Source of the DNA: a virus | Taxonomy: Duplodnaviria; Caudoviricetes | IMG/VR virus record: IMGVR_UViG_3300049024_000030 | Coordinates: 1 to 59,508 of that record | Direction: 5' to 3' (one strand) | Length of the DNA: 59,508 nucleotides | Shown here: in pieces, positions 3,417-54,428 of the stretch | Layout of the letters: each line of letters opens with the position of its first letter | Numbering within the stretch: position 1 is the stretch's first letter | Made by a program: the position numbers and the translations under genes | Notes under the pieces: model-generated | Seen by the model: the letters and a program-made list of their open reading frames with translations, nothing else | The model's database searches: none | What the model was told of the DNA's origin: nothing

Positions 3417-3925
3417 GCGAAGAGAAGCCGAACAATCCCGCCGACGTGGCCGACGCGCTTGTCAGAAAAATAGCAGCAGGCTCTGGCCTTGAATTAGCCG
3501 AGGACTACGAGGAGCGCATCAAGGAAATGCGCGATTGGATGATGGCAGAGTTCGAGGTGGGCACGGAGGCCGATAAGCTGATAAAACAAGCGCCGGGCCT
3601 GACAGAATACGACGCGCGCCTGCTCGCCCGCGCAATGGGCAGCAACATCGAAAGCCGCGAGATAGCCGACGGCGTATATCAACACGTCGCAAAGGAGACG
3701 CCTATGAGATGGACAAGCGAATTCCCGACGAAGCCGGGGCTTTATTGGGCGAGAAACGAATTGATCAAAATAGATCAAGAGCACGGATATCAACCCGATC
3801 CCGAAGCGGGCATCGTGCGAGTATATGAAGACTCTTCATTTTGCTATCCGGGTAGCGAGGTACCGACTTATCTCGACGATCTTGTTTCAGCCGAATGGTT
3901 CGGCCCGATCGAGCCGCCGGAATAA
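3413..3925 (+). CDS. hypothetical phage protein
   Basis: ATGA overlap with the previous gene; WTSEFPTKPGLYW...WFGPIEPP small phage domain pattern. Confidence 0.75.
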   Translation: MSEEKPNNPADVADALVRKIAAGSGLELAEDYEERIKEMRDWMMAEFEVGTEADKLIKQAPGLTEYDARLLARAMGSNIESREIADGVYQHVAKETPMRWTSEFPTKPGLYWARNELIKIDQEHGYQPDPEAGIVRVYEDSSFCYPGSEVPTYLDDLVSAEWFGPIEPPE

Positions 3926-3940
3926 GAGAAGGAGACAAGA

Positions 3941-4168
3941 ATGCAGCGGAGATACATTACCGTATATTACAAAGACAACGCCCTTTTCCTTTTCCCCGAG
4001 ATTGCCGAGCAATTCAACCTATATAACGGCGCTCGTCTGCGTAATCAGGATCAGTTTTATGCCGTGCTAGGAGCCAATGCGGAATGCGGAATTGCACAGT
4101 GCGAGCTTCAGCTCGCGATGGATAAAGATTTTGATTCTCAGCCTGTACCTGACTCCTTGCCCGAATAA
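3941..4168 (+). CDS. hypothetical protein
   Basis: RBS AAGGAG. Confidence 0.7.
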   Translation: MQRRYITVYYKDNALFLFPEIAEQFNLYNGARLRNQDQFYAVLGANAECGIAQCELQLAMDKDFDSQPVPDSLPE

Positions 4169-4171
4169 ACG

Positions 4172-4215
4172 AAAAGGCCGATCAGCGCTACCGTCGCCGG
4201 TCGGCCCATTCCCCT
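4172..4215. terminator. hairpin between convergent accessory and tail operons
   Basis: GGCCGATC...GGTCGGCC stem preceded by AAAA (a U-tract on the minus strand). Confidence 0.5.
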
Positions 4216-4298
4216 TTCGACGACCGTTTCCAGTCCCCGTTCCGCGACGCTAAAGTCTCAGCCAGAGTAGAAGCGCCGCGAGTTGAAGCAATTATATC

Positions 4299-23757: not shown

Positions 23758-25014
23758 TTATTGCCGCTCCAGCAGTTGCGCCTGCTTGCCCGTCTCGGCC
23801 TCCCATCGGGACAAGATCACATTGACATATTTCGGCTCCAGTTCGAGTCCGTAGCACTTGCGCCCTTCGCGCTCAGCCGCAATGAATTGCGACCCGCTCC
23901 CGGCGAACGGCTCATAGACGACATCGCCCGGCTTTGTGTGGTTGCGGATCGGAATCACGAATAATTCGACCGGCTTCTGCGTGGGATGAACTTTGTCATT
24001 TTCCCGGCCCACTTCCCATATTGTTGTCTGATTGCGCTCTCCGTAAAACTCGGGCCTGAAGCCGCGACGCCATCCGTAAAAGCACAATTCATGCCGCCAG
24101 TGATAATCGCCGCGCCCAAACACCAGTGATGGCTTCACCCATATAATTTGCCGATGGATGAGAATATCCGCCGCCGCCGCCGCCGCAAAAAACGTGCCTT
24201 GCGTCAGCATGGGATGCCAGAGATAAAAGGCCGTCCGCTCAAGCAAGTAAGGGACAGCAACACGAATAACAGTTTCGAGAAAGGATTGCAGCCTCTCGCC
24301 GTCCAAATCATCATTCTCAATCTCCGTGTAATCCTCGCCCTGCCCCTTAGATTGCGCATTACTGACATAAGCGATCCCATAGGGCGGGTCGGTATTCATC
24401 AAGGCCGCCCTCTCTCCCGCCATCACCCTTTCCACATCTTCAGCCTTCGTCGAATCCCCGCACAAAACCCGATGCTCGCCGCACGCCCACAAATCCCCAT
24501 ACACCACCCGCGTCTGCGTCTCTTCCGGCGTCGTATCAAAATCGTCGCCGCCTGCGCCCGGCGCGTTGCTTCCCATCGGCGGCACAATCCCCGCATCTTC
24601 CGCCTGCTTCGTGAGCAGGTTCATCAGATCCTCATTCCCGGTCGAAACTTCGCGCAGCAACTCATCCAGCTTCACCCTGCTCTGCTCAGCCTGCCATCCG
24701 ATTGGATCGAACGTGGCGACGGCGAGATCGGCTTCGCTATCCGTCAAATCGTAAATATCAACATCCCATTCCTGATCAGGATCGAGCGATTGGCGGCCGT
24801 GACCGTCGAAGAAGACCAGCGCCCCGCCCGCGCGCTCGCTGCGATACGCCTTCAGATCGTCTAACTTGCCGACGGTTTCCAGCAGCCCCCGCAGCGGCGC
24901 TAATTGGCTTTCCGGATGAATCTTCGGATTCATCGGATGCGGTAATACATCGCCGACGCGCATCCGGACGGTTTCAATCTTCCTATCCTTCCATTGTGAT
25001 TTTGCTTTACTCAC
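23758..25014 (-). CDS. ParB-N domain plus N6/N4 DNA methyltransferase
   Basis: PHPMNPKIH N-terminus; GEHRVLCGDST, TDPPY, HPTQKPV, YEPFAGSGS. Confidence 0.92.
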   Translation of the reverse strand: MSKAKSQWKDRKIETVRMRVGDVLPHPMNPKIHPESQLAPLRGLLETVGKLDDLKAYRSERAGGALVFFDGHGRQSLDPDQEWDVDIYDLTDSEADLAVATFDPIGWQAEQSRVKLDELLREVSTGNEDLMNLLTKQAEDAGIVPPMGSNAPGAGGDDFDTTPEETQTRVVYGDLWACGEHRVLCGDSTKAEDVERVMAGERAALMNTDPPYGIAYVSNAQSKGQGEDYTEIENDDLDGERLQSFLETVIRVAVPYLLERTAFYLWHPMLTQGTFFAAAAAADILIHRQIIWVKPSLVFGRGDYHWRHELCFYGWRRGFRPEFYGERNQTTIWEVGRENDKVHPTQKPVELFVIPIRNHTKPGDVVYEPFAGSGSQFIAAEREGRKCYGLELEPKYVNVILSRWEAETGKQAQLLERQ

Positions 25015-32643: not shown

Positions 32644-33558
32644 TCAGAAATCCGCCTCTCGATAACCCGTTCGCGCCTGCCCCCTTGCCCCTGGCGCGCG
32701 TTCCTTCTCGAATGATTCCAGCTTCCCGACTTCGCAAAGCCGATTAAGCCACACCTGAACATAAATCCGATCCCGCTTCATCCTGGCCGCGATCTGATCG
32801 CATTCGTCGTAACCCTGGCGAAGTAGTTCATAAATCGTCACTTCCACCGTCTGGGGCGGAAGGGTGAGTTCGTATTGAATTTCTTCGACATAGCCATTTA
32901 TTAAGTTTTGCAGTCGTGGCGCGGCGGTAATCATCTGGCGGCAGGCCACTTGAAAACCTTCCCACGCCGCGGTTACTTCAGGATCATCGCAGAGCGCCGG
33001 GACTGTCGTATCCAATGGCGGTGTTTTCTCTTCTTCAAGCATTCGTCGAGCATCCCTTGTCGAGAAGTAGGGATTGTCGGACTTTTGGCGAGCGAATTTT
33101 TCAATCGTCCCCCATGGATCATCGGTATGGTAGGCGAGCCGATAGAATTCCTTTTGGCGCAAGTGCTGAAGAGAGCCGTTTTCAATCTCTCTAGTCTTGG
33201 CGCCAAGACTAGAGAAAAACGTCTCGTGAATGCCCGCGTTCTCATATACCAGCTTCGGCGAAACGGCGCAGAGATCGGCGTATTCCTGCACGGCCCTTGC
33301 CACCTGCTGGCCCTCGAGATCGTATCGTCCCCTGGCGCCCCTTGGCTGCGAGCGCCGCGCAACTTCAGCGTCACAGGCGCACTCGACACGCCACGACATA
33401 TAGCCGAGCGATTCCACCTGCTGGCGAATTTCCAATACTCGGTCGTCCGCCGTCTCAGGCAGTTCGGAAATAAGCCTGTCCGCCATCGCTTCAACGCTAT
33501 TGAAAAATCCGATTGCCGTTGACGCAATCGCTTGTGAGGGAGTTGAAATTGCTGTCAT
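32644..33558 (-). CDS. DNA-binding protein with C-terminal winged HTH (candidate late activator)
   Basis: IAARMKRDRIYVQVWLNRLCEVGKLE wHTH; last early gene before the late promoters; RBS AGGAGA. Confidence 0.6.
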   Translation of the reverse strand: MTAISTPSQAIASTAIGFFNSVEAMADRLISELPETADDRVLEIRQQVESLGYMSWRVECACDAEVARRSQPRGARGRYDLEGQQVARAVQEYADLCAVSPKLVYENAGIHETFFSSLGAKTREIENGSLQHLRQKEFYRLAYHTDDPWGTIEKFARQKSDNPYFSTRDARRMLEEEKTPPLDTTVPALCDDPEVTAAWEGFQVACRQMITAAPRLQNLINGYVEEIQYELTLPPQTVEVTIYELLRQGYDECDQIAARMKRDRIYVQVWLNRLCEVGKLESFEKERAPGARGQARTGYREADF

Positions 33559-33635
33559 TGTTCTCCTGGTACTGCTGTTATGGGAAAGCGCCGGCGCGTC
33601 CGGCGCGTTAGGTGATACGTTGGGGCGCGCGGTAA

Positions 33636-33730
33636 AACGTTGCGTTGAATTGCGAAGCGCCGAGGCGCAGCGCGATGCCCGGCATGAAGTAGCCCTGCAT
33701 CGCCCGAAGATGCAGCGCGTTACCCGACAC
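33636..33730 (-). repeat. 5-nt periodic array D (19 units) with conserved tail; putative guide-like ncRNA
   Basis: tgt CG ggt AA cgc GC tgc AT ctt CG ggc GA tgc AG ggc TA ctt CA tgc CG ggc AT cgc GC tgc GC ctc GG cgc TT cgc AA ttc AA cgc AA cgt T. Confidence 0.85.
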
Positions 33731-34240
33731 TTAACCCGCCTTCCGCTTGCTCAATAGATCAATAATCCCGCCCGTCGAAAGCTTACCGTCATCCGGCGCG
33801 GCCTCGTGTATCTTCTTCGCCTCTTTCTCTCGCGCCCAATTCTTGAGAGTGTTGGCGAAGGCGCGGTTCGTATTAACCTCTTTCTGTTCCTCCTTGCCCA
33901 ATTTCTCAATTGGGACAAATCCCAGTTTCCTCTCGATGTCCCCGGCGGCTTTTCGAATCCGCTTTCTGCCAATCAACGGCACAGCCTTGCTGTAATCGGA
34001 TTCCGTGACGCGCTGAATGCCGGAAGTCCGCATTACACTGAAGAATATGCTTTCTTCGCGGGCTAGATACCTGACGGCACTATCGAGAACATGGCGCGCC
34101 TCTTTCTGAACATTGCGCCCGATCAGTTCAGACAATTCGCGATAAGTCGCGCTGGCGCTGTAGTCCAGTTCGCGAAGTTTTTCGATCAGCATTTGAGTGT
34201 CGAGACTAAGCTTGAATTCTGGCCTAATATTCTTTTCCAT
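33731..34240 (-). CDS. basic winged-helix protein, partner of the Cas7-like gene
   Basis: RBS AAGGAG before ATG 34240; TYRELSELIG...AVRYLAREESIFF..GIQRV wHTH-like; flanked by arrays on both sides. Confidence 0.75.
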   Translation of the reverse strand: MEKNIRPEFKLSLDTQMLIEKLRELDYSASATYRELSELIGRNVQKEARHVLDSAVRYLAREESIFFSVMRTSGIQRVTESDYSKAVPLIGRKRIRKAAGDIERKLGFVPIEKLGKEEQKEVNTNRAFANTLKNWAREKEAKKIHEAAPDDGKLSTGGIIDLLSKRKAG

Positions 34241-34257
34241 AAATCTCCTTAAAGTAG

Positions 34258-34332
34258 AAACGTTGCGTTGAAGAGCCTCGCGGGGCGGTGAGCAGCGACG
34301 TGATGTGCAGCGACGCGCAGCCCCACCGGGCA
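34258..34332 (-). repeat. 5-nt periodic array C (15 units)
   Basis: tgc CC ggt GG ggc TG cgc GT cgc TG cac AT cac GT cgc TG ctc AC cgc CC cgc GA ggc TC ttc AA cgc AA cgt TT. Confidence 0.85.
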
Positions 34333-34361
34333 TTGGCAAATCTAAAAATGTAAAAGAGCGA

Positions 34362-34446
34362 AAACGTTGCGTTGAAGTGCGTTACCGCGCCGGGCGCAAC
34401 AGCGCGCTGCACAGCCAAGCACTGCGGTGCGGGGCCTCGCGGCGCT
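34362..34446 (-). repeat. 5-nt periodic array B (17 units)
   Basis: agc GC cgc GA ggc CC cgc AC cgc AG tgc TT ggc TG tgc AG cgc GC tgt TG cgc CC ggc GC ggt AA cgc AC ttc AA cgc AA cgt TT. Confidence 0.88.
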
Positions 34447-35010
34447 CTAAGCCTCTTGCCAGTCCACCTTATTCACCTTGAACCGGCCATAAAATCCGTT
34501 TTGGCGCGGACGGAAACGCCCTAATCCGATCAAGTTCCCCGCCGCCTCCAGATGTGCCGTGAAAACATCCTGAGTAATCAGCTCGTCCACGATGTAGAAA
34601 ACCACTGTCACTTTCCATGCGGGAATCAGCGGGTAACACTTCCAAACCCTCTTACCTGATCCGCGCTTACCGTCGGCGGGCAAGAACAACCATTCGCCTT
34701 GGACTTCCTCTTTCTTGATGGGCAACACTGGCCCCTCAGTAACCAGAATCCCAGCCTCGAAGTTTTTGGTATATGTCGCCTTCCCTTTTCCCGGCACCTG
34801 AACGCTGAGAAATTTCGCGATCTCCGCTATACAATTTTTAAACGCCATCGGCGGCATAAATACGTAGCCATCAGCGTTGACGTGCAGCCGGTCGCGCCAT
34901 GTCCGCTCTTCGTAATCTTTCGGCAGTTCCCTATCCTTCTTCGGCGTCGTGTAATTCTTGGATTGTGAATACTGTGAAGTGCTTTCAAGTTCGCACGTTG
35001 CAATGATCAT
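34447..35010 (-). CDS. stand-alone Cas7/Csm3-like RAMP protein
   Basis: N-terminal beta strand (ATCELESTSQY), VFMPPMAFKNCI (compare the RAMP IPGSSLKG region) and a C-terminal G-rich loop GLGRFRPRQNGFYGRFKV; RBS AGGAGA. Confidence 0.8.
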   Translation of the reverse strand: MIIATCELESTSQYSQSKNYTTPKKDRELPKDYEERTWRDRLHVNADGYVFMPPMAFKNCIAEIAKFLSVQVPGKGKATYTKNFEAGILVTEGPVLPIKKEEVQGEWLFLPADGKRGSGKRVWKCYPLIPAWKVTVVFYIVDELITQDVFTAHLEAAGNLIGLGRFRPRQNGFYGRFKVNKVDWQEA

Positions 35011-35044
35011 ATCGGGTCTCCCTTTTGTTGGTTGTTAATAGTTA

Positions 35045-35109
35045 TAGCGTTGCGTTGAGCGGCGATGCCAAGCATTGCGCAGACGCGCGGTGCCATGCGA
35101 AGCACAACG
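35045..35109 (-). repeat. 5-nt periodic array A (13 units)
   Basis: cgt TG tgc TT cgc AT ggc AC cgc GC gtc TG cgc AA tgc TT ggc AT cgc CG ctc AA cgc AA cgc TA. Confidence 0.82.
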
Positions 35110-35112
35110 TGG

Positions 35113-35454
35113 TCAAGTCGTCGCCTCTCTGTATTTCTTTATCGCCGATTGCAATTCAATCCGCGCCAGGTGTTCTTTGCTTTTCAAAACATCGGCGCGC
35201 GGGTACTCGTGAACCGATCCGTTCTGATAGTCGTAAAGTTCAGTCGCCGCGTCGTCCCACTTCACGCCACTTTCGGCCAGCTTATGCAGCGCGTCGAGTT
35301 GGGCGACGGCGGGAACCTTGACGGCAGCGCGCAGCGAAATGATTTCCTGATCGCGGTTCCACACGTCGAGTTTCAGTTGCGTGATATCCGCCTTCAGCCG
35401 CTCAATTTCCCGGCTGCGTTCGGTTAATGGATCAAGAGTTTTAAGTCCGTTCAT
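35113..35454 (-). CDS. hypothetical protein
   Basis: ATG after a G10 tract; coiled-coil N-terminus. Confidence 0.7.
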   Translation of the reverse strand: MNGLKTLDPLTERSREIERLKADITQLKLDVWNRDQEIISLRAAVKVPAVAQLDALHKLAESGVKWDDAATELYDYQNGSVHEYPRADVLKSKEHLARIELQSAIKKYREATT

Positions 35455-35466
35455 AACCCCCCCCCC

Positions 35467-36147
35467 TTACTGAAACCTGAACCCCACAAATCCGCGCACC
35501 TCGCCCGCGCGCTTCCCTCGCGTCTCGTTGCCTTCGCGGTAATGGTGATAGCGGCCTTCGACGCCGAAGTGAAGGTGTAAATAGCCGCTGATCTTGCGCG
35601 TGTGACTGAATTCCCCGCCGAAACCGCGCAATCCTGAATAACTGTAGGTATCTGGGAAGTAGTAAGAAAAGATCGCTTCGCTGCCGCCGAGCCTAACACC
35701 CGCGACCGCCGTTGGATTGACTGACGAGTTGTACAGGCGATACGGCCCGCCGGAACGGTAGACGCCGGGTGATCTGTCGAAGAAGTGCCTTATCGTGCTC
35801 ACCCCGCCGCCGACGAAGACCTTGTTCAACGGTTCAACCGGCAGATAGCCGACCAATACCGCCTTGTATCTCAATTCCGACTCGGCGCGCGTCGGACCGT
35901 ATTCGCCGGTGAAGAGATTGGGAATGATTGGGTTGTTCAGATACGCGCCGGTGAATCGCGCCTGGAAGCCATGCCGTAGATCGTAGGCGCTGTCGACGTA
36001 GGCGCCGGTGATGGTTTGGGAACGTTCGGCGGTGGTTCCGGCAAAGGTAACGCCGCCGCCAATCCATGTGCGCGGCGATTGATCCTGCGCGACGGCGGTA
36101 ATGGTTGAAAGTGCTACTAAAGTGAAAATCAGTATTCGGTATTTCAT
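35467..36147 (-). CDS. outer-membrane beta-barrel protein (Lom/Ail-like function possible)
   Basis: Signal peptide ending AVA-Q, alternating amphipathic strands, C-terminal VRGFVGFRFQ; RBS AAGGAG. Confidence 0.75.
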   Translation of the reverse strand: MKYRILIFTLVALSTITAVAQDQSPRTWIGGGVTFAGTTAERSQTITGAYVDSAYDLRHGFQARFTGAYLNNPIIPNLFTGEYGPTRAESELRYKAVLVGYLPVEPLNKVFVGGGVSTIRHFFDRSPGVYRSGGPYRLYNSSVNPTAVAGVRLGGSEAIFSYYFPDTYSYSGLRGFGGEFSHTRKISGYLHLHFGVEGRYHHYREGNETRGKRAGEVRGFVGFRFQ

Positions 36148-38643: not shown

Positions 38644-39021
38644 TTACGCTCCCGCTGTCTGGCGATATGTCACGGCTTCGGCCTCTGCGCGGACGGCGCC
38701 GAGCAAACTTTGTAGCGCGCTTATTTGCGTCTTCAAGCTTTTCACCAGTTCCCATGCGGCTTCGTGTTCAGCCTCTGCCAGTCTCACGCGATACATCGCC
38801 TTGTCCGTGGCAATATCCACCAACGCCGCTCTGTGCGCCTCAGTCAGCTTCTTGCCGTTCTCGTCGTTCAGGCCGCACACACGCACAAGCTCAACCGCGC
38901 GCGACTGCCGATAAGCGTGCTCGGCCAGGCCATGCTCTTTTGCGGCTTGTTCGTGCGCGTTATTGGCGTGTGCCAGTTTCACAATCCCGTCGAGAATTTG
39001 TTCTTGCAGTTGTTCCCTCAT
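38644..39021 (-). CDS. coiled-coil hypothetical protein
   Basis: ATGA overlap with 39018-39248. Confidence 0.7.
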   Translation of the reverse strand: MREQLQEQILDGIVKLAHANNAHEQAAKEHGLAEHAYRQSRAVELVRVCGLNDENGKKLTEAHRAALVDIATDKAMYRVRLAEAEHEAAWELVKSLKTQISALQSLLGAVRAEAEAVTYRQTAGA

Positions 39022-41518: not shown

Positions 41519-42226
41519 TTAGGCGATTAACCGTCCTTGTTTTTCTATGAGCTCTTGCGCGGTGGTGCGCTGCGCACGCTTAGCTTTTACGTTACTGCTC
41601 TCCGCGGCCTCATGGACGTTCCGAAAGATTTTCACGATTGGAGTAGCGCTCTCAGCGGCTAGCGGGTGCGTTGAAATGCGGTCCCACGGCACTGCTTTAA
41701 ATGTAGCGTTAGACGTTCGCTGGTCATAGCATTGCTTCTGAGTTGTTTCTGGATGGTCAATAATGCCGACAAGGTGCTTCGTTCTTATTGCGGCCAAGGA
41801 AAGCAATGGCCCTTCCCACCTCTCCAAGTAAGACTGAAAAGTGAGATGCGGGTATAGAAACTTCCCTTCTGACTGAATAGCTGCCCTTCTCTTCTCAAGT
41901 TCGGTTGGAGCCCCATTATCGCGCTTGTTGCGCACAGTGAACGTGTCATACGGGAACTTCCCTTTGGCGATCTTGCCGTCAATACCAATGCGGGGTTGAA
42001 TTCTACTTGCGATCCCCGCAACGCCCTCTGGATAAAACAATAAGCCATCGAATCCGGCATACAGGTCAAGAATCTTTGCGAGACCTGACTTGTAAGCCTC
42101 TTCAAGAGACATAAAGTCGCACTCGCCCAGCCATCTCAGGTCTCTGATGATTGGCCAGACAATTTCAACAAAGGCGCGCCCGCTATGGTCTAGATCCCGC
42201 CTGACATCGCTATCCATTGGTGACAC
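41519..42226 (-). CDS. hypothetical protein, possible PD-(D/E)xK-type nuclease
   Basis: LDLYAGFD...GIASRIQ...DTFTVR..TELEK; overlaps the end of the MTase gene. Confidence 0.55.
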   Translation of the reverse strand: MSPMDSDVRRDLDHSGRAFVEIVWPIIRDLRWLGECDFMSLEEAYKSGLAKILDLYAGFDGLLFYPEGVAGIASRIQPRIGIDGKIAKGKFPYDTFTVRNKRDNGAPTELEKRRAAIQSEGKFLYPHLTFQSYLERWEGPLLSLAAIRTKHLVGIIDHPETTQKQCYDQRTSNATFKAVPWDRISTHPLAAESATPIVKIFRNVHEAAESSNVKAKRAQRTTAQELIEKQGRLIA

Positions 42227-43712
42227 CTCGCTCTACTTGAATTGCGATCATCTGCGGATCGAGTTCGGACCCGACTGCGACGTGTCCCTGCTCCGTTGCC
42301 GCAAGTAGGAATGTCCCCGTGCCAGCGAACGGATCAATAACAAATGCTCCGGCCTGACTAAGCGCGTGCCTGACCAGCATCGAAGCTAACTCCATTGGCT
42401 TCTCCCATGCGTGCCAGCGTTTACCGTTGCGGCCATCGGGCGCGTTGATAACTTGCAGCGTGTTCTTTTCGGTAAGGACTGAAGTATTCAGCGCGGGCGC
42501 ATCCTGTTTATAGACGTGCCACACCATTTGAATGTTGGTCTTGTAGTCGTGTGTAGGCGCCGGGCCGACAGTGTTGTTGTAGCCCCATACCAGCGGGACG
42601 CCGACGGTTAGCCCGTCAATGGCCGTTAGCGCGGCAGCATAGGCGGCCAACTCTTCAGGATATGCGCCAGTGCAGATGTAAGCGCGTCCTGTCGGCTTGA
42701 GTTTTTGAATTGCCAGCGGTACCCACTCGGCGGCAAATGCGGCTATGTCTTCAACGTCGGTTGCATAGGGCGGGTCGGTGATAAGCAGATCAACGGATTC
42801 ATCCTCAATACTATGCAGAAATGAAACCGCGTCGGATTGGTGGACGGTTGCTTTTAGCTCGCGCAGAGCTTGGAGTTTGAGATTGATTTCGTGAGTTAGC
42901 TTTTCGATCTGGCGTATATCCCATACCCACTTGTCCGCCCAGTCTAAAGATGTTTCTTCTTCGAGTTCTTCGATGCGAAGTCTCAGCGTGAGCATTGCCG
43001 CAACGCATTCTTTCACGGCGCGCGGCGACATCCGCCCAGTGAAGACGCGCAGCGCCACATCAGCGGCGGGGTAAATGTCGGTTAGCTCTTCGGGTATAGT
43101 TTTAACGGCTTCGATTGCGGCTTTGACTGCCGCGTCCACATCGGCGGCGCTCATCTCGTAAATGCTCTGAGCGGCTTCTATCCAGCAGGCGCGGGGCAGG
43201 GCATGGATAGCGGCAAGGTGTTTCGCTTTCTCTAATAAAAAAGTGGCCTGAGCCACTTTTTTATTAGAGTGCTCGTACACCTCTCCCGCCATTCGCAGCA
43301 CGGTGATATAGCCTCGGTCTTTGCCTATCTTCTCTGCGTATGCCGTTAATCCGCCAGCCTTCTGCAATGGCACAGCCTTGAATGCGTGGATCCCAATTTC
43401 AAGCGGCGACAGTTCGCCTTGCGCATTACTGAGGACGAGTTGCATGAATGCTTCTTCGTCGCTCATCTCTTCGACCCAGCAAGGCACAGTCTTTATGTCG
43501 GCTCGCCTTGCCGCCTCGCGCCGGGTGTGTCCGCTGATCACTTGGTAATGGCCATTGAGGGGCCGCACGATTGGCGCATGCATTTCGCTGAACGCACCAG
43601 ACTCTTTCAACTGTGCGACGATCCCGTCAATCACGTCCTCGCGCAGCACCAAGCGCGGGTTGTCTGGGTGCGGCTGTAGTTTTTCGATTGGTATGTGTTT
43701 TAGTTCTGCCAT
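42210..43712 (-). CDS. ParB/Spo0J domain plus N6-adenine-type DNA methyltransferase
   Basis: PHPDNPR, YQVISGHTRREA, HTH; DLLITDPPY, HAWEKP, IDPFAGTGT. Confidence 0.92.
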   Translation of the reverse strand: MAELKHIPIEKLQPHPDNPRLVLREDVIDGIVAQLKESGAFSEMHAPIVRPLNGHYQVISGHTRREAARRADIKTVPCWVEEMSDEEAFMQLVLSNAQGELSPLEIGIHAFKAVPLQKAGGLTAYAEKIGKDRGYITVLRMAGEVYEHSNKKVAQATFLLEKAKHLAAIHALPRACWIEAAQSIYEMSAADVDAAVKAAIEAVKTIPEELTDIYPAADVALRVFTGRMSPRAVKECVAAMLTLRLRIEELEEETSLDWADKWVWDIRQIEKLTHEINLKLQALRELKATVHQSDAVSFLHSIEDESVDLLITDPPYATDVEDIAAFAAEWVPLAIQKLKPTGRAYICTGAYPEELAAYAAALTAIDGLTVGVPLVWGYNNTVGPAPTHDYKTNIQMVWHVYKQDAPALNTSVLTEKNTLQVINAPDGRNGKRWHAWEKPMELASMLVRHALSQAGAFVIDPFAGTGTFLLAATEQGHVAVGSELDPQMIAIQVERGVTNG

Positions 43713-51514: not shown

Positions 51515-51579
51515 CATCCGGCGCGTTGTTGTCCTGGGGGAGTACCGCGCCGGATCGATGTTTTTCACAAAGAGAAATT

Positions 51580-52746
51580 ATGCCGCGACGATACAAAGGC
51601 TATTCCGCCTATCCGTACAAAGAAAAAGCGAGTGGGAAATGGTATGGCCGGCTGGAACTGAAAAAGCCGGACGGAAAGATGAAAGTCTACTCGCGTCAGG
51701 CGAGGAACAAAACCCACGCCAGGCAGATCGCGGACGAACTGGAAGCCAGGTATATAACCGGCGGCACGGAAGCGCTCGACGCCGAGAATATGACGGTGGG
51801 TGAGTTGGCGGGAAGATATAGAAAGGCGAAAGTCGTCGACGCGGCATATGACGGCGGAATCAAGGTGTCTGGAATGATCGCGAAAGCATCAGCCGAAGAC
51901 GAGATAAAGGAACTGCTGGAGTACTGGAACCTGGCGCCGATTCAGAAGATCACCCATGCCGCGATTGAAGAGTATAAATCGCATATACTGAAAAAGCCGA
52001 CGTTTTGGCGCTGGCGCAAAGGCGATAAGATTGTTGAAAAGCCACGCGGGACGCCGCGCAAAATGTCGAGCGTCAATCATTTATTGCGCAGGCTTCGCGC
52101 TATGTTGAACTTCGCGATCCGCAATGGCTGGCTCGTCAAAAACCCGTTTAACGCCGGCGAGCCGTTGATCAGCGACGCCGCCGAGGTTCCGCGCAACCGC
52201 GCCGAACGCGTCGAAGAACTGGACAAGCTACTCGCCGCTTGCGTTGGCAGCCGCGCCTATCTGCGGCCTGTGATCCTGATTATGGCCGATTCGGCGTTGC
52301 GACTTACCGAAGCGAAGCGGCTCACGCGCGCCAATCTGGATTTGGATCGTAAAGTCGCCTATATCGAAGCGCGGAATACGAAGAAGAACAAACAACTGCG
52401 CATTATTCCGTTATCCGATCGGTTGATTGAAGAGCTGAAGGTGTGGGCTGAGAAGGCGAAGACGGACGACGTTCCGATCCTGCAGCAAGGCGACTATAAG
52501 AAGGCCTGGAAGGCGCTGAAGAAGGAAGCCAAAATATCCGACGATCTGCAGTTGAGAGACCTTCGCGGATGGGGAACGTCCAAGATCGCGCGCGCGCTTG
52601 CCGCCAACAATTTGCCGTGGCAGTGGGGCATGAAGGCGACGGGGCATACGCAAACCAAAACCTACGAGCGGTATTTGAAGACGGATGAGGAAATCGCGAG
52701 ACAAACGGGCGAGGCGCTGAAGAAAATTGAAAAAAAAGTTGCGTGA
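51580..52746 (+). CDS. int: tyrosine integrase
   Basis: N-terminal arm-binding domain, SSVNHLLRRLRAMLNFA, SALRLTE (R), TK (K), LRDLR, TGH, YERY; adjacent attP. Confidence 0.92.
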   Translation: MPRRYKGYSAYPYKEKASGKWYGRLELKKPDGKMKVYSRQARNKTHARQIADELEARYITGGTEALDAENMTVGELAGRYRKAKVVDAAYDGGIKVSGMIAKASAEDEIKELLEYWNLAPIQKITHAAIEEYKSHILKKPTFWRWRKGDKIVEKPRGTPRKMSSVNHLLRRLRAMLNFAIRNGWLVKNPFNAGEPLISDAAEVPRNRAERVEELDKLLAACVGSRAYLRPVILIMADSALRLTEAKRLTRANLDLDRKVAYIEARNTKKNKQLRIIPLSDRLIEELKVWAEKAKTDDVPILQQGDYKKAWKALKKEAKISDDLQLRDLRGWGTSKIARALAANNLPWQWGMKATGHTQTKTYERYLKTDEEIARQTGEALKKIEKKVA

Positions 52747-53079: not shown

Positions 53080-53231
53080 CGCCCGCAGTTACGACCGTCC
53101 TTTAACGCTGACGTGCTTCCAACACTCAGCGCACAATCCAAACGACAATTAGCGCGCCTTTGCGTGGTGCAGATAAATCACTACGCAGGGCCACGTTCGA
53201 TGACTCAACGTCGCAGATTCAATACGAGCGA

Positions 53232-54428
53232 ATGAGCGATCTGACGATTTTACAAGGTGACTGCCGCGAGAAGTTGCGGGGACTGCCCGACGCCAGTGTT
53301 CATACCTGCGTCACGTCCCCGCCCTACTGGGGGCTCCGCAACTACAACGTTGATGGCCAAATCGGACTCGAGAAGTCGCCGGCGGAATACGTCGCGCAGT
53401 TGGTCGAAGTCTTTCGAGAAGTGCACCGCGTGCTAAGGGACGACGGGACGCTCTGGCTAAACTTAGGAGACTCCTACGCCGGATCGTGGGGCAACTACGG
53501 CGGTCAGAATCGTGGCAATGGGAAGCAGCGCAAGATTGAGAGCGGATCGCAGGCGCATCAGAAAGCATACGATGGACTTGATAACTGGCGTCCGCCAACT
53601 GCCGGAAATCTCGGATCGGGCCTGAAGCCGAAAGACCTGATCGGCATTCCCTGGCGGGTCGCCTTCGCGCTTCAGGAAGATGGCTGGTATTTGCGTCAGG
53701 ATATTATCTGGGCGAAGCCAAACCCGATGCCTGAGAGTGTCGAGGACCGATGCACCAAATCTCACGAATACATTTTCATGCTCAGCAAGAGCTCGATGTA
53801 TTTCTACGACCAGGAGGCCATTAAGGAGCCAGCGATATATGCGGATGACGACCGGATCGGGCGGGCCCAGGCGATCCACAAGAGCGCCCCAGATGGAACG
53901 GTAAACGGAATCCGAGCTCGATCAGATAAGCAGCGGGGGCATTCTCGCCGCCACGCTGGATTTAATGACCGATGGGATCAGATGAAGAAGTCTGAGCAGT
54001 GCTCAGGGATGCGCAATAAGCGGAGCGTCTGGAACGTTTCGACAGCGCCCTATCCCGATGCCCATTTCGCCACCTATCCGCCAGCGCTTATCAAGCCCTG
54101 CATCCTGGCCGGCAGTCCCGCAGGCGGAACCGTGCTTGACCCGTTCGGCGGATCTGGAACCACTGGCAAAGTCGCGCTCGAGCTTGGACGATCGGCTGTC
54201 CTGATCGAGTTAAACCCGGACTACGTGAAACTGATCGAAAAGCGTTGTCGGGTAAACCTGCCGCTGATGTTCGATCTTAACCATCAACCATTAACCACAA
54301 GGAGAACTATGGACATCACCGCATCAACTTCACAAACCGACTTACCAGTCGAACCGGAAACCCCGGCCGACGCCGACACTGCCGAACAGCCGACGGTGGA
54401 AGCGCCGCTCGGTGATCCCGAGGAATAG
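53232..54428 (+). CDS. N4-cytosine/N6 (beta-class) DNA methyltransferase
   Basis: ILQGDC, CVTSPPY, GTLWLNLGDSY, WAKPNPMPESV, HFATYP, VLDPFGGSGTT; ATG 53232. Confidence 0.93.
   Translation: MSDLTILQGDCREKLRGLPDASVHTCVTSPPYWGLRNYNVDGQIGLEKSPAEYVAQLVEVFREVHRVLRDDGTLWLNLGDSYAGSWGNYGGQNRGNGKQRKIESGSQAHQKAYDGLDNWRPPTAGNLGSGLKPKDLIGIPWRVAFALQEDGWYLRQDIIWAKPNPMPESVEDRCTKSHEYIFMLSKSSMYFYDQEAIKEPAIYADDDRIGRAQAIHKSAPDGTVNGIRARSDKQRGHSRRHAGFNDRWDQMKKSEQCSGMRNKRSVWNVSTAPYPDAHFATYPPALIKPCILAGSPAGGTVLDPFGGSGTTGKVALELGRSAVLIELNPDYVKLIEKRCRVNLPLMFDLNHQPLTTRRTMDITASTSQTDLPVEPETPADADTAEQPTVEAPLGDPEE

Follow-up and report, generated by a model that had tools for sequence, protein, structure and literature searches.

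The current work concerns a locus on the minus strand, between positions 35109 and 33635, of the viral record IMGVR_UViG_3300049024_000030 (Duplodnaviria; Caudoviricetes), the whole 59,508-base record for this genome being the stretch analyzed and referred to below as the window. The locus comprises two protein-coding genes and four intergenic tracts of pentamers, each pentamer being composed of a nearly fixed triplet (the "handle") and a variable dinucleotide (NN). An initial annotation of this DNA had proposed a non-CRISPR RNA-guided system and had pointed to reports of phage elements called VIPR (Viral Interference Programmable Repeat). The corresponding preprints exist and describe that mechanism: a VIPR system consists of a RAMP protein (Vipr), in most cases with a single accessory gene (vap), and of vrRNA genes on either side, each made up of 9-16 YNNGG repeats and closed by an invariant 3' tail (10.64898/2026.04.26.720920).

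Read along the gene strand, the locus begins with the upstream guide, vrRNA 1 (35045..35109), which starts 4 bases past the stop of the upstream gene and contains 10 variable units and 3 tail-like units (CTCAA CGCAA CGCTA). It is followed by vipr (34447..35010), encoding a 187-aa single-RRM RAMP and preceded by a Shine-Dalgarno-like GGGAG, and then, immediately past the vipr stop codon, by vrRNA 2 (34362..34446), with 14 variable units and the tail TTCAA CGCAA CGTTT. An A/T-rich spacer (34333..34361, reading TCGCTCTTTTACATTTTTAG...) separates vrRNA 2 from vrRNA 3 (34258..34332), which has 12 variable units and the same tail. The vap-like accessory gene (33731..34240; 169 aa, with its ATG at 34240 after AAGGAG) comes next, and vrRNA 4 (33635..33729), with 16 variable units and again the tail TTCAA CGCAA CGTTT, starts 2 bases past the vap stop codon. 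All of these features are encoded by the minus strand. The next open reading frame (ORF) past vrRNA 4, of 304 aa (32644-33558, minus strand), is without a Pfam or PHROG match.

The four tracts parse without indels as N-G-Y-N-N pentamers, the triplet being NGY in 53 of the 64 units (11/13, 16/17, 11/15 and 15/19 in vrRNA 1 to 4, respectively). The counts given for the first three tracts in the initial annotation were reproduced exactly, whereas its fourth tract, placed at 33636-33730, gives 0/19 in that register and 15/19 at 33635-33729, a one-base slip that does not affect the substance. The third handle base had been described as always a pyrimidine, and it is C or T in 64/64 units (13/13, 17/17, 15/15 and 19/19; binomial P 8e-21 versus strand composition), while the second is G in 53/64 units (P 4e-19 on the same basis). 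The first base is freer: over all 64 units it is C in 35, G in 14, T in 14 and A in 1, and in the core units C (50%), G (27%) and T (21%) give an entropy of 1.59 bits, with CGC (19), GGC (10) and TGC (9) as the commonest handles among 52 such units. The canonical GGY handle occurs in only 13/64 units, and the handles of vrRNA 3 are the most degenerate of the four tracts (CAC twice, CTC). Entropy amounts to 0.78 bits at position 2 and 0.66 at position 3, compared with 1.92 at position 4 and 1.99 at position 5, and 15 of the 16 possible NN dinucleotides are used. In vrRNA 1, identity at lag 5 is 0.50 versus 0.15-0.29 at lags 1-4 and 6-9.

Such a periodicity could in principle be a compositional accident of GC-rich intergenic DNA beside an unrelated small protein, an explanation which has the GC-richness of the tracts in its favor and nothing else. 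A window of 12 units was slid along both strands of the 59.5-kb contig, with 30 Markov shuffles as control, and at least 10 of 12 matching units were found only at the four tracts (which reach 10-12). In 24 of the shuffles the highest score was 8 and in the other 6 it was 9, with none above 9. The next-best place in the contig, 38876-38935, scores 9/12 and was rejected as a further tract, as it reads as ordinary sequence. Together with a probability of about 1e-20 for the pyrimidine column and the presence of the pattern beside a homologue in 89/89 other loci (see below), this refutes the compositional explanation, to which next to no credence is left.

GC reads as GC on the opposite strand too, so that the plus strand also scores in the NGY scan; the minus strand is nevertheless taken as the sense strand because of the invariant pyrimidine, the constant end at the 3' side and the fact that array strand equals gene strand in the relatives. 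This constant end is the 11-mer TCAACGCAACG, which closes all four tracts exactly (35048-35058, 34365-34375, 34261-34271 and 33638-33648 for vrRNA 1 to 4) and has only these four matches in the window, all on the minus strand. With a period of 5 the tracts are not coding, and the mechanical ORFs of 40-85 codons that cross them (33608-33730 and 34224-34418 on the minus strand, 33500-33757 and 34305-34481 on the plus strand) are likely not coding for the same reason, although automatic annotation could call them genes. The predicted folds of the tracts do not outperform those of shuffled controls (z -0.35 to +0.65), which is as expected for an RNA that would be held extended by protein, and Rfam returned no family, hammerhead included, at E<=1 except for a chance microRNA row.

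If the tracts instead acted as DNA-level repeats (iterons), bound by a winged-helix or RAMP-like protein and regulating the operon, a predicted DNA-binding protein encoded in the locus would be at hand, and neither a called promoter nor expression evidence speaks for an RNA. The pattern is, however, strand-specific, with its pyrimidine at position 3 in 64/64 gene-strand units and its constant 3' end; the arrays of relatives lie on the gene strand as well; the free bases are hypervariable between close relatives, unlike binding sites; and the homologous tracts of Escherichia phage SUSP1 are RNAs bound by Vipr (10.64898/2026.04.26.720920). We therefore regard iterons as very improbable.

The initial annotation had recognized RAMP hallmarks (PPMAFK and a G-rich loop) in the 187-aa protein and had called for a fold comparison with Cas7 and Csm3, and both points were borne out. 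The AlphaFold2 (AF2) model of the protein (predicted local distance difference test, pLDDT, 97.4; predicted template modelling score 0.90) has a RAMP fold with the order b1-a1-b2-thumb hairpin-b3-a2-G-loop-b4, in which the thumb hairpin covers about residues 104-129, the glycine-rich G-loop reads 162-GLGRFRPRQNGFYGR-176, and PPMAFK (residues 53-58) opens helix 1. Foldseek returned 139 matches at E<=0.001 for this model, the best being type VII Cas7, Csm3 and Cmr4 (E 9e-8 to 1e-5, probability 1.00, TM score 0.5-0.6); the PDB copy searched ends at 2026-04-08, and no Vipr entry appeared. At the sequence level the protein has no match to Cas7 models (Pfam, PADLOC) and no Pfam family above cut-off, and it matches phrog_4652 (function unknown) at E 3e-13. 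Its family is large: of 1710 candidates, 1674 match at E<=1e-3, and clustering at 50% identity leaves 1119 representatives. A phmmer search against all PDB sequences gave a single match, 36pp_D, "SUSP1 Vipr protein" (E 3.5e-4, residues 107-179), and a 77-sequence family profile still found only 36pp_D, now at E 4.7e-13 and over profile positions 15-182, which is nearly full length. BLASTP against the SUSP1 gene product gave 27/83 identities.

In the SUSP1 structure each repeat is covered by a single protomer; H17 and D177 recognize G1, R138 and W178 recognize G2, and the Y3 pocket, formed by E71, M72, R179, C173 and T175, excludes purines (10.64898/2026.04.26.720927). Alignment of the G-loops shows the aromatic residue and the arginine to be kept in the window protein (W178 to F166, R179 to R167), and D177 to be replaced by R165.

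The vap-like product was modeled with a pLDDT of 89.7 as an N-terminal winged helix (residues about 10-78; order helix-strand-helix-helix-strand-strand) followed by a helical hairpin (79-138). Alignment by VIA gave the PurR winged helix (Z 7.8, root-mean-square deviation 2.4, 67 residues) and NSE1 and ScpB (both Z 7.3), values in the range which that tool calls common, and a winged-helix fold is thus predicted with moderate confidence. Foldseek yielded no match at E<=0.001, its rows (GntR/FadR, MarR and Z-alpha proteins) all being weak (E>=0.037); no PDB sequence scored below E 0.06 against the Vap profile, and no Pfam family scored above cut-off. BLASTP found no match between Vap and SUSP1 vap1, and hhalign aligned the two over 97 columns (probability 82%, E 1e-5). 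Homologues lie just downstream of vipr in nine related loci (L001, L002, L005-L010 and L012; phmmer E 7e-13 to 4e-6), and none was detected in L003 or L004. The gene evolves fast, with only 4 word-based matches.

The surrounding genes are those of a temperate phage or excised prophage: two integrases, a large terminase, portal, scaffold and major head proteins and head-tail adaptors, accompanied by a DnaB-like helicase, a replication initiator, RecT, SSB and a repressor-like helix-turn-helix protein. The two tyrosine-integrase-like genes lie at 289-1131 and 51526-52743, and three DNA methyltransferases are encoded at 23761-25014, 42213-43712 and 53160-54425, one of them fused to a ParB-like N-terminal domain. 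The nearest named relatives of the terminase come from Blastocatellia metagenome-assembled genomes (77% and 68% identity), pointing to a soil acidobacterium as the probable host. The DNA of the window is present in two soil metagenome runs, the contigs of the second carrying identical fragments only. No ORF of the window (0/76) matches a PADLOC cas model at E<=1e-5, and Tandem Repeats Finder detected no CRISPR-like array in the whole 59.5-kb record, in agreement with what the initial annotation had stated about cas genes and CRISPR repeats.

Relatives of the locus, designated by L numbers, were collected from viral contigs. In the first ten (44-70% identity), arrays adjoin vipr in 10/10 cases, eight of which were found by an NGY caller and two by reading, since L001 uses GAC/GGC and L009 uses CAC/TAC. 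A second scan yielded 233 relatives, of which 80 were kept. When the caller was run without a preset handle, it detected period-5 arrays in 90/90 loci, namely the window and 89 others, a set which leaves out L011 and L013-L018 (non-family or duplicate) as well as L020 and L023 (duplicates). Arrays and genes share the same strand in these relatives. In the closest, L019 (72% identity), the parts are arranged as in the window, the tail is CTCAA CGCAA CGTTT, and there are seven guides whose NN strings are entirely unrelated to those of the window. The expectation that homologues would be flanked by period-5 arrays was confirmed in 89/89 other loci. An A/T-rich element, CGCTCTTTTA[A/C]AT, is conserved after the tail wherever a guide precedes another guide (34333-34361 in the window, and L019, where a similar CGCTCTTTTAAAT follows the three arrays ending at 3892, 3974 and about 4060), and this element may serve as promoter or terminator, or as a site at which single guides are processed.

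Most loci have GGC as their predominant handle; CGC predominates in about twenty, and GAC, GTC, AGY, CTC or CAC in few, position 3 staying a pyrimidine across relatives. GAC is found in L001, L055, L056 and L075, GTC in L071, L080, L082 and L097, AGY in L027 and L073, and CTC in L060; mixed handles within one locus are common (in L031, GGC 59, GAC 36 and CGC 24). In L009 (44% identity), the arrays at 3565-3669 and 4165-4268 carry a fixed Y-A-C (CAC in 27 and TAC in 9 of 64 units) and no G, and its G-loop reads QYRPQ as compared with RFRPR in the others. In the 3.3-kb viral contig L003 (1992-2600), the vipr homologue is frameshifted into ORFs of 87 and 102 codons, and a putative vap and a clean 12-unit GGC array are kept.

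Taken together, the locus is very probably a complete VIPR system of a temperate soil phage. The sequence holds a Vipr homologue, pentamer arrays with hypervariable NN, an invariant tail, a winged-helix accessory gene and a phage context free of cas genes and CRISPR; the literal GGY handle is the one sequence-level VIPR feature it lacks. This absence does not exclude membership because the preprint admits YNNNG repeats, listed in its Methods beside NNNGG and NNNNG as alternatives (10.64898/2026.04.26.720920). YNNNG is N-G-Y-N-N read from the pyrimidine, with G and Y fixed and the base before G free, whereas position 1 in the window is biased rather than free (C>G>T, A nearly absent), and the GAC, GTC, AGY, CTC and CAC handles of relatives appear to fit none of the three repeats listed in those Methods. 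For the alternative repeats, neither an example nor a protein determinant nor a targeting rule is given in the main text of the preprint (10.64898/2026.04.26.720920). The link to the VIPR reports thus stands, given the homology to SUSP1 Vipr and the arrays carried by all relatives, while the further suggestion of the initial annotation that the locus could be a distinct subtype is upheld in part: the handle is mostly CGC/TGC-like and not GGY, but a YNNNG variant is already listed in the preprint's Methods.

VIPR systems are reported mostly from phages and prophages, fall into seven types and have natural targets that are mostly rival mobile elements (10.64898/2026.04.26.720920), and those characterized are the type II system of SUSP1 and that of a Pseudomonas fulva prophage (10.64898/2026.04.26.720920; structures 10.64898/2026.04.26.720927, PDB 36pp). 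The window shares with these two a single-RRM RAMP of ~190 aa with thumb and G-loop; predicted pentamer RNAs (13-19 units here) in which the handle is fixed, NN is hypervariable and the 3' end does not vary; a first guide that precedes vipr and further ones that follow it; a small accessory gene of winged-helix-like type; and carriage by a phage without cas genes or a CRISPR array. It differs from them in its handle (N-G-Y instead of GGY) and in the residues aligned to D177 (R165) and R138 (Y126), in having two guides between vipr and vap, in its short repeat-like tail CAACGCAACG without a predicted pseudoknot, and in its host, probably a soil acidobacterium. The predicted RRM core, thumb hairpin and glycine-rich loop are also those of the Cas7 backbones Csm3, Cmr4 and type VII Cas7, with which polymerization along a guide RNA at a fixed step and periodic breaking of the duplex by the thumb were counted as further likenesses; the step is, however, 5 nt and not 6, a CRISPR array, Cas6, Cas5, large or small subunit and adaptation genes are missing from the window, the VIPR guide is a tandem repeat in which 2 of 5 bases are read, and the likeness does not extend to a sequence-level match.

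By analogy to the SUSP1 work, each tract would be transcribed into a vrRNA of roughly 65-95 nt along which Vipr protomers would polymerize, one per pentamer, so that the N-G-Y handle would be buried between thumb, G-loop and helix 1 and the NN pairs would be exposed. The resulting filament, assisted by the winged-helix Vap, would bind double-stranded DNA matching NN-x-NN-x, one base being skipped per unit, and would block transcription of a competing mobile element or of another gene. The preprint reports that vrRNAs bind double-stranded DNA via NN only, with one target base skipped per unit, and silence transcription (10.64898/2026.04.26.720920).

Targets were sought first within the phage, under six rules (0-3 skipped bases; NNN read with 0 or 1 skip), and nothing exceeded 16/20 or 20/32 matched bases except the tracts matching themselves, in agreement with the absence of self-targeting reported in the VIPR preprint (10.64898/2026.04.26.720920). 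In the large collections only exact matching to the NNx pattern was applied, with 20-32 specified bases for vrRNA 2, 3 and 4 and 20 for vrRNA 1. Among the viral contigs, vrRNA 1 has one perfect match, which spans all 10 variable units and lies in a portal gene (L014:1001-1029, on a 10.9-kb contig); this portal belongs to the same PHROG as that of the window (31% identity), the skipped base falls at codon position 1, and neither flanking nor tail units match. Among the metagenomes, the perfect matches of vrRNA 1 are on four contigs (L015-L018) and in one family of N6/N4 DNA-methylase genes, the full gene being L016:972-2411; here each of the 10 codons has the skipped base at its wobble position, and two skipped bases are the sole differences in a diverged copy. 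The 68.9-kb metagenome contig L015 retains only the C-terminal 140 codons of the methylase (1045-1467), between two HigB/HigA-type toxin-antitoxin pairs. Conversely, 28 guides from relatives showed no match to the window phage above permuted controls.

The methylase matches bear on a further explanation, namely that the Vipr-vrRNA particle is genuine but its guides regulate genes of the phage itself or of the host, such as a restriction-modification methylase, or follow another reading rule, the first handle base being partly free. This is consistent with the only perfect metagenome matches of vrRNA 1 falling in a methyltransferase gene with skipped bases at the wobble position in 10/10 codons, with the diverged homologue that varies only at two of them, and with the 1.59 bits of entropy at handle position 1. 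The six-rule search of the phage, on the other hand, speaks against this explanation, and the methylase site represents one gene family. The pattern that matched it specifies 20 bases, and such a pattern should by a rough estimate meet about 0.1 sites by chance among the viral contigs and about one among the metagenomes. The first handle base equals the skipped base in just 3/10 units at both candidate sites of vrRNA 1 (counted by hand) and is 63-85% C in relatives, so that it looks like part of the handle rather than of the code. Guides of this kind are accordingly considered unlikely, though less so than iterons.

Several results nonetheless weigh against a functioning VIPR system with rival elements as its targets. 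The matches of vrRNA 1 are in a number compatible with chance and are leads, no target being claimed; on the matched contigs, the other three guides reach an NN match well under 80%, and permuted guides do as well. Full-length NNx patterns of vrRNA 2, 3 and 4, and 10-unit pieces of vrRNA 4 and vrRNA 3, have no exact match in viral contigs, and the 12 tail-proximal units of vrRNA 2 have none in metagenomes; the one-base-skip rule on which these patterns are built is itself established only for GGY systems. Whereas the tail in the SUSP1 clade forms a pseudoknot, no structure is predicted for that of the window. Promoter and terminator calling over 33400-35600 returned neither a sigma-70-like promoter nor an intrinsic terminator, and no RNA run carrying this stretch of the window was found.

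The variation of handles within the family allowed the first handle base to be related to the protein. A mutual-information scan for this base identified positions 110 and 126 of the window protein, which are L110 and Y126, the latter aligning with R138 of the SUSP1 thumb. Both positions were mapped by tblastn in all 90 loci, each locus being classed by the first base of its commonest triplet. In loci with G or A first (n=68), the pair is V110/F126 in 67 and L/F in 1, while V/F occurs in none of the C-first loci (n=22), where the pairs are L/Y (12, window included), V/Y (6), M/F (2), L/M (1) and A/M (1, in L009). R165, aligned to SUSP1 D177, was also considered as cause of the G/C switch and was rejected, RFR being present in 80/80 loci with G as second base whatever the first. 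In a tree of 68 intact proteins built without columns 110 and 126, the first-base class needs 9 changes, the first tree having only 10/53 inner branches well supported.

From these sequence comparisons, the relaxed first handle base of the window may be attributed to the thumb residues L110/Y126. A broader and more tentative proposal, which we hold to be possible but doubtful, is that within the Vipr clade (55-72% identity) the handle has switched among GGC, GAC, GTC, AGY, CGC, CTC and CAC, with the first base set by two thumb residues: a purine would go with V110/F126, C would go with Y126 preceded by L110 or V110, or with M at either position, and L110/Y126 of the window would be a relaxed reader of C, T or G. 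Competing phages would thereby evolve orthogonal protein-guide pairs, a rival Vipr being unable to load the guides. The association between thumb and handle is striking but may reflect shared ancestry: an approximately unbiased (AU) test does not reject a single clade of the C-first rows (p 0.068, 68 rows), and several rows are near-identical copies.

VIPR has been known since April 2026, and the window taken by itself confirms a known kind rather than revealing a new one; the locus very probably adds a clean and complete example, carried by a soil phage and remote from the systems tested so far, which are enterobacterial or from Pseudomonas. In the preprints, VIPR is put forward as the probable forerunner of the effector complexes of CRISPR and as a programmable DNA binder of very small size (10.64898/2026.04.26.720920, 10.64898/2026.04.26.720927). 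If the proposed role of the thumb is true, orthogonal VIPR tools could be engineered simply through positions 110 and 126, and the variation of the handle within one protein clade would offer a testable guess at how Vipr tells its own guides from those of others.

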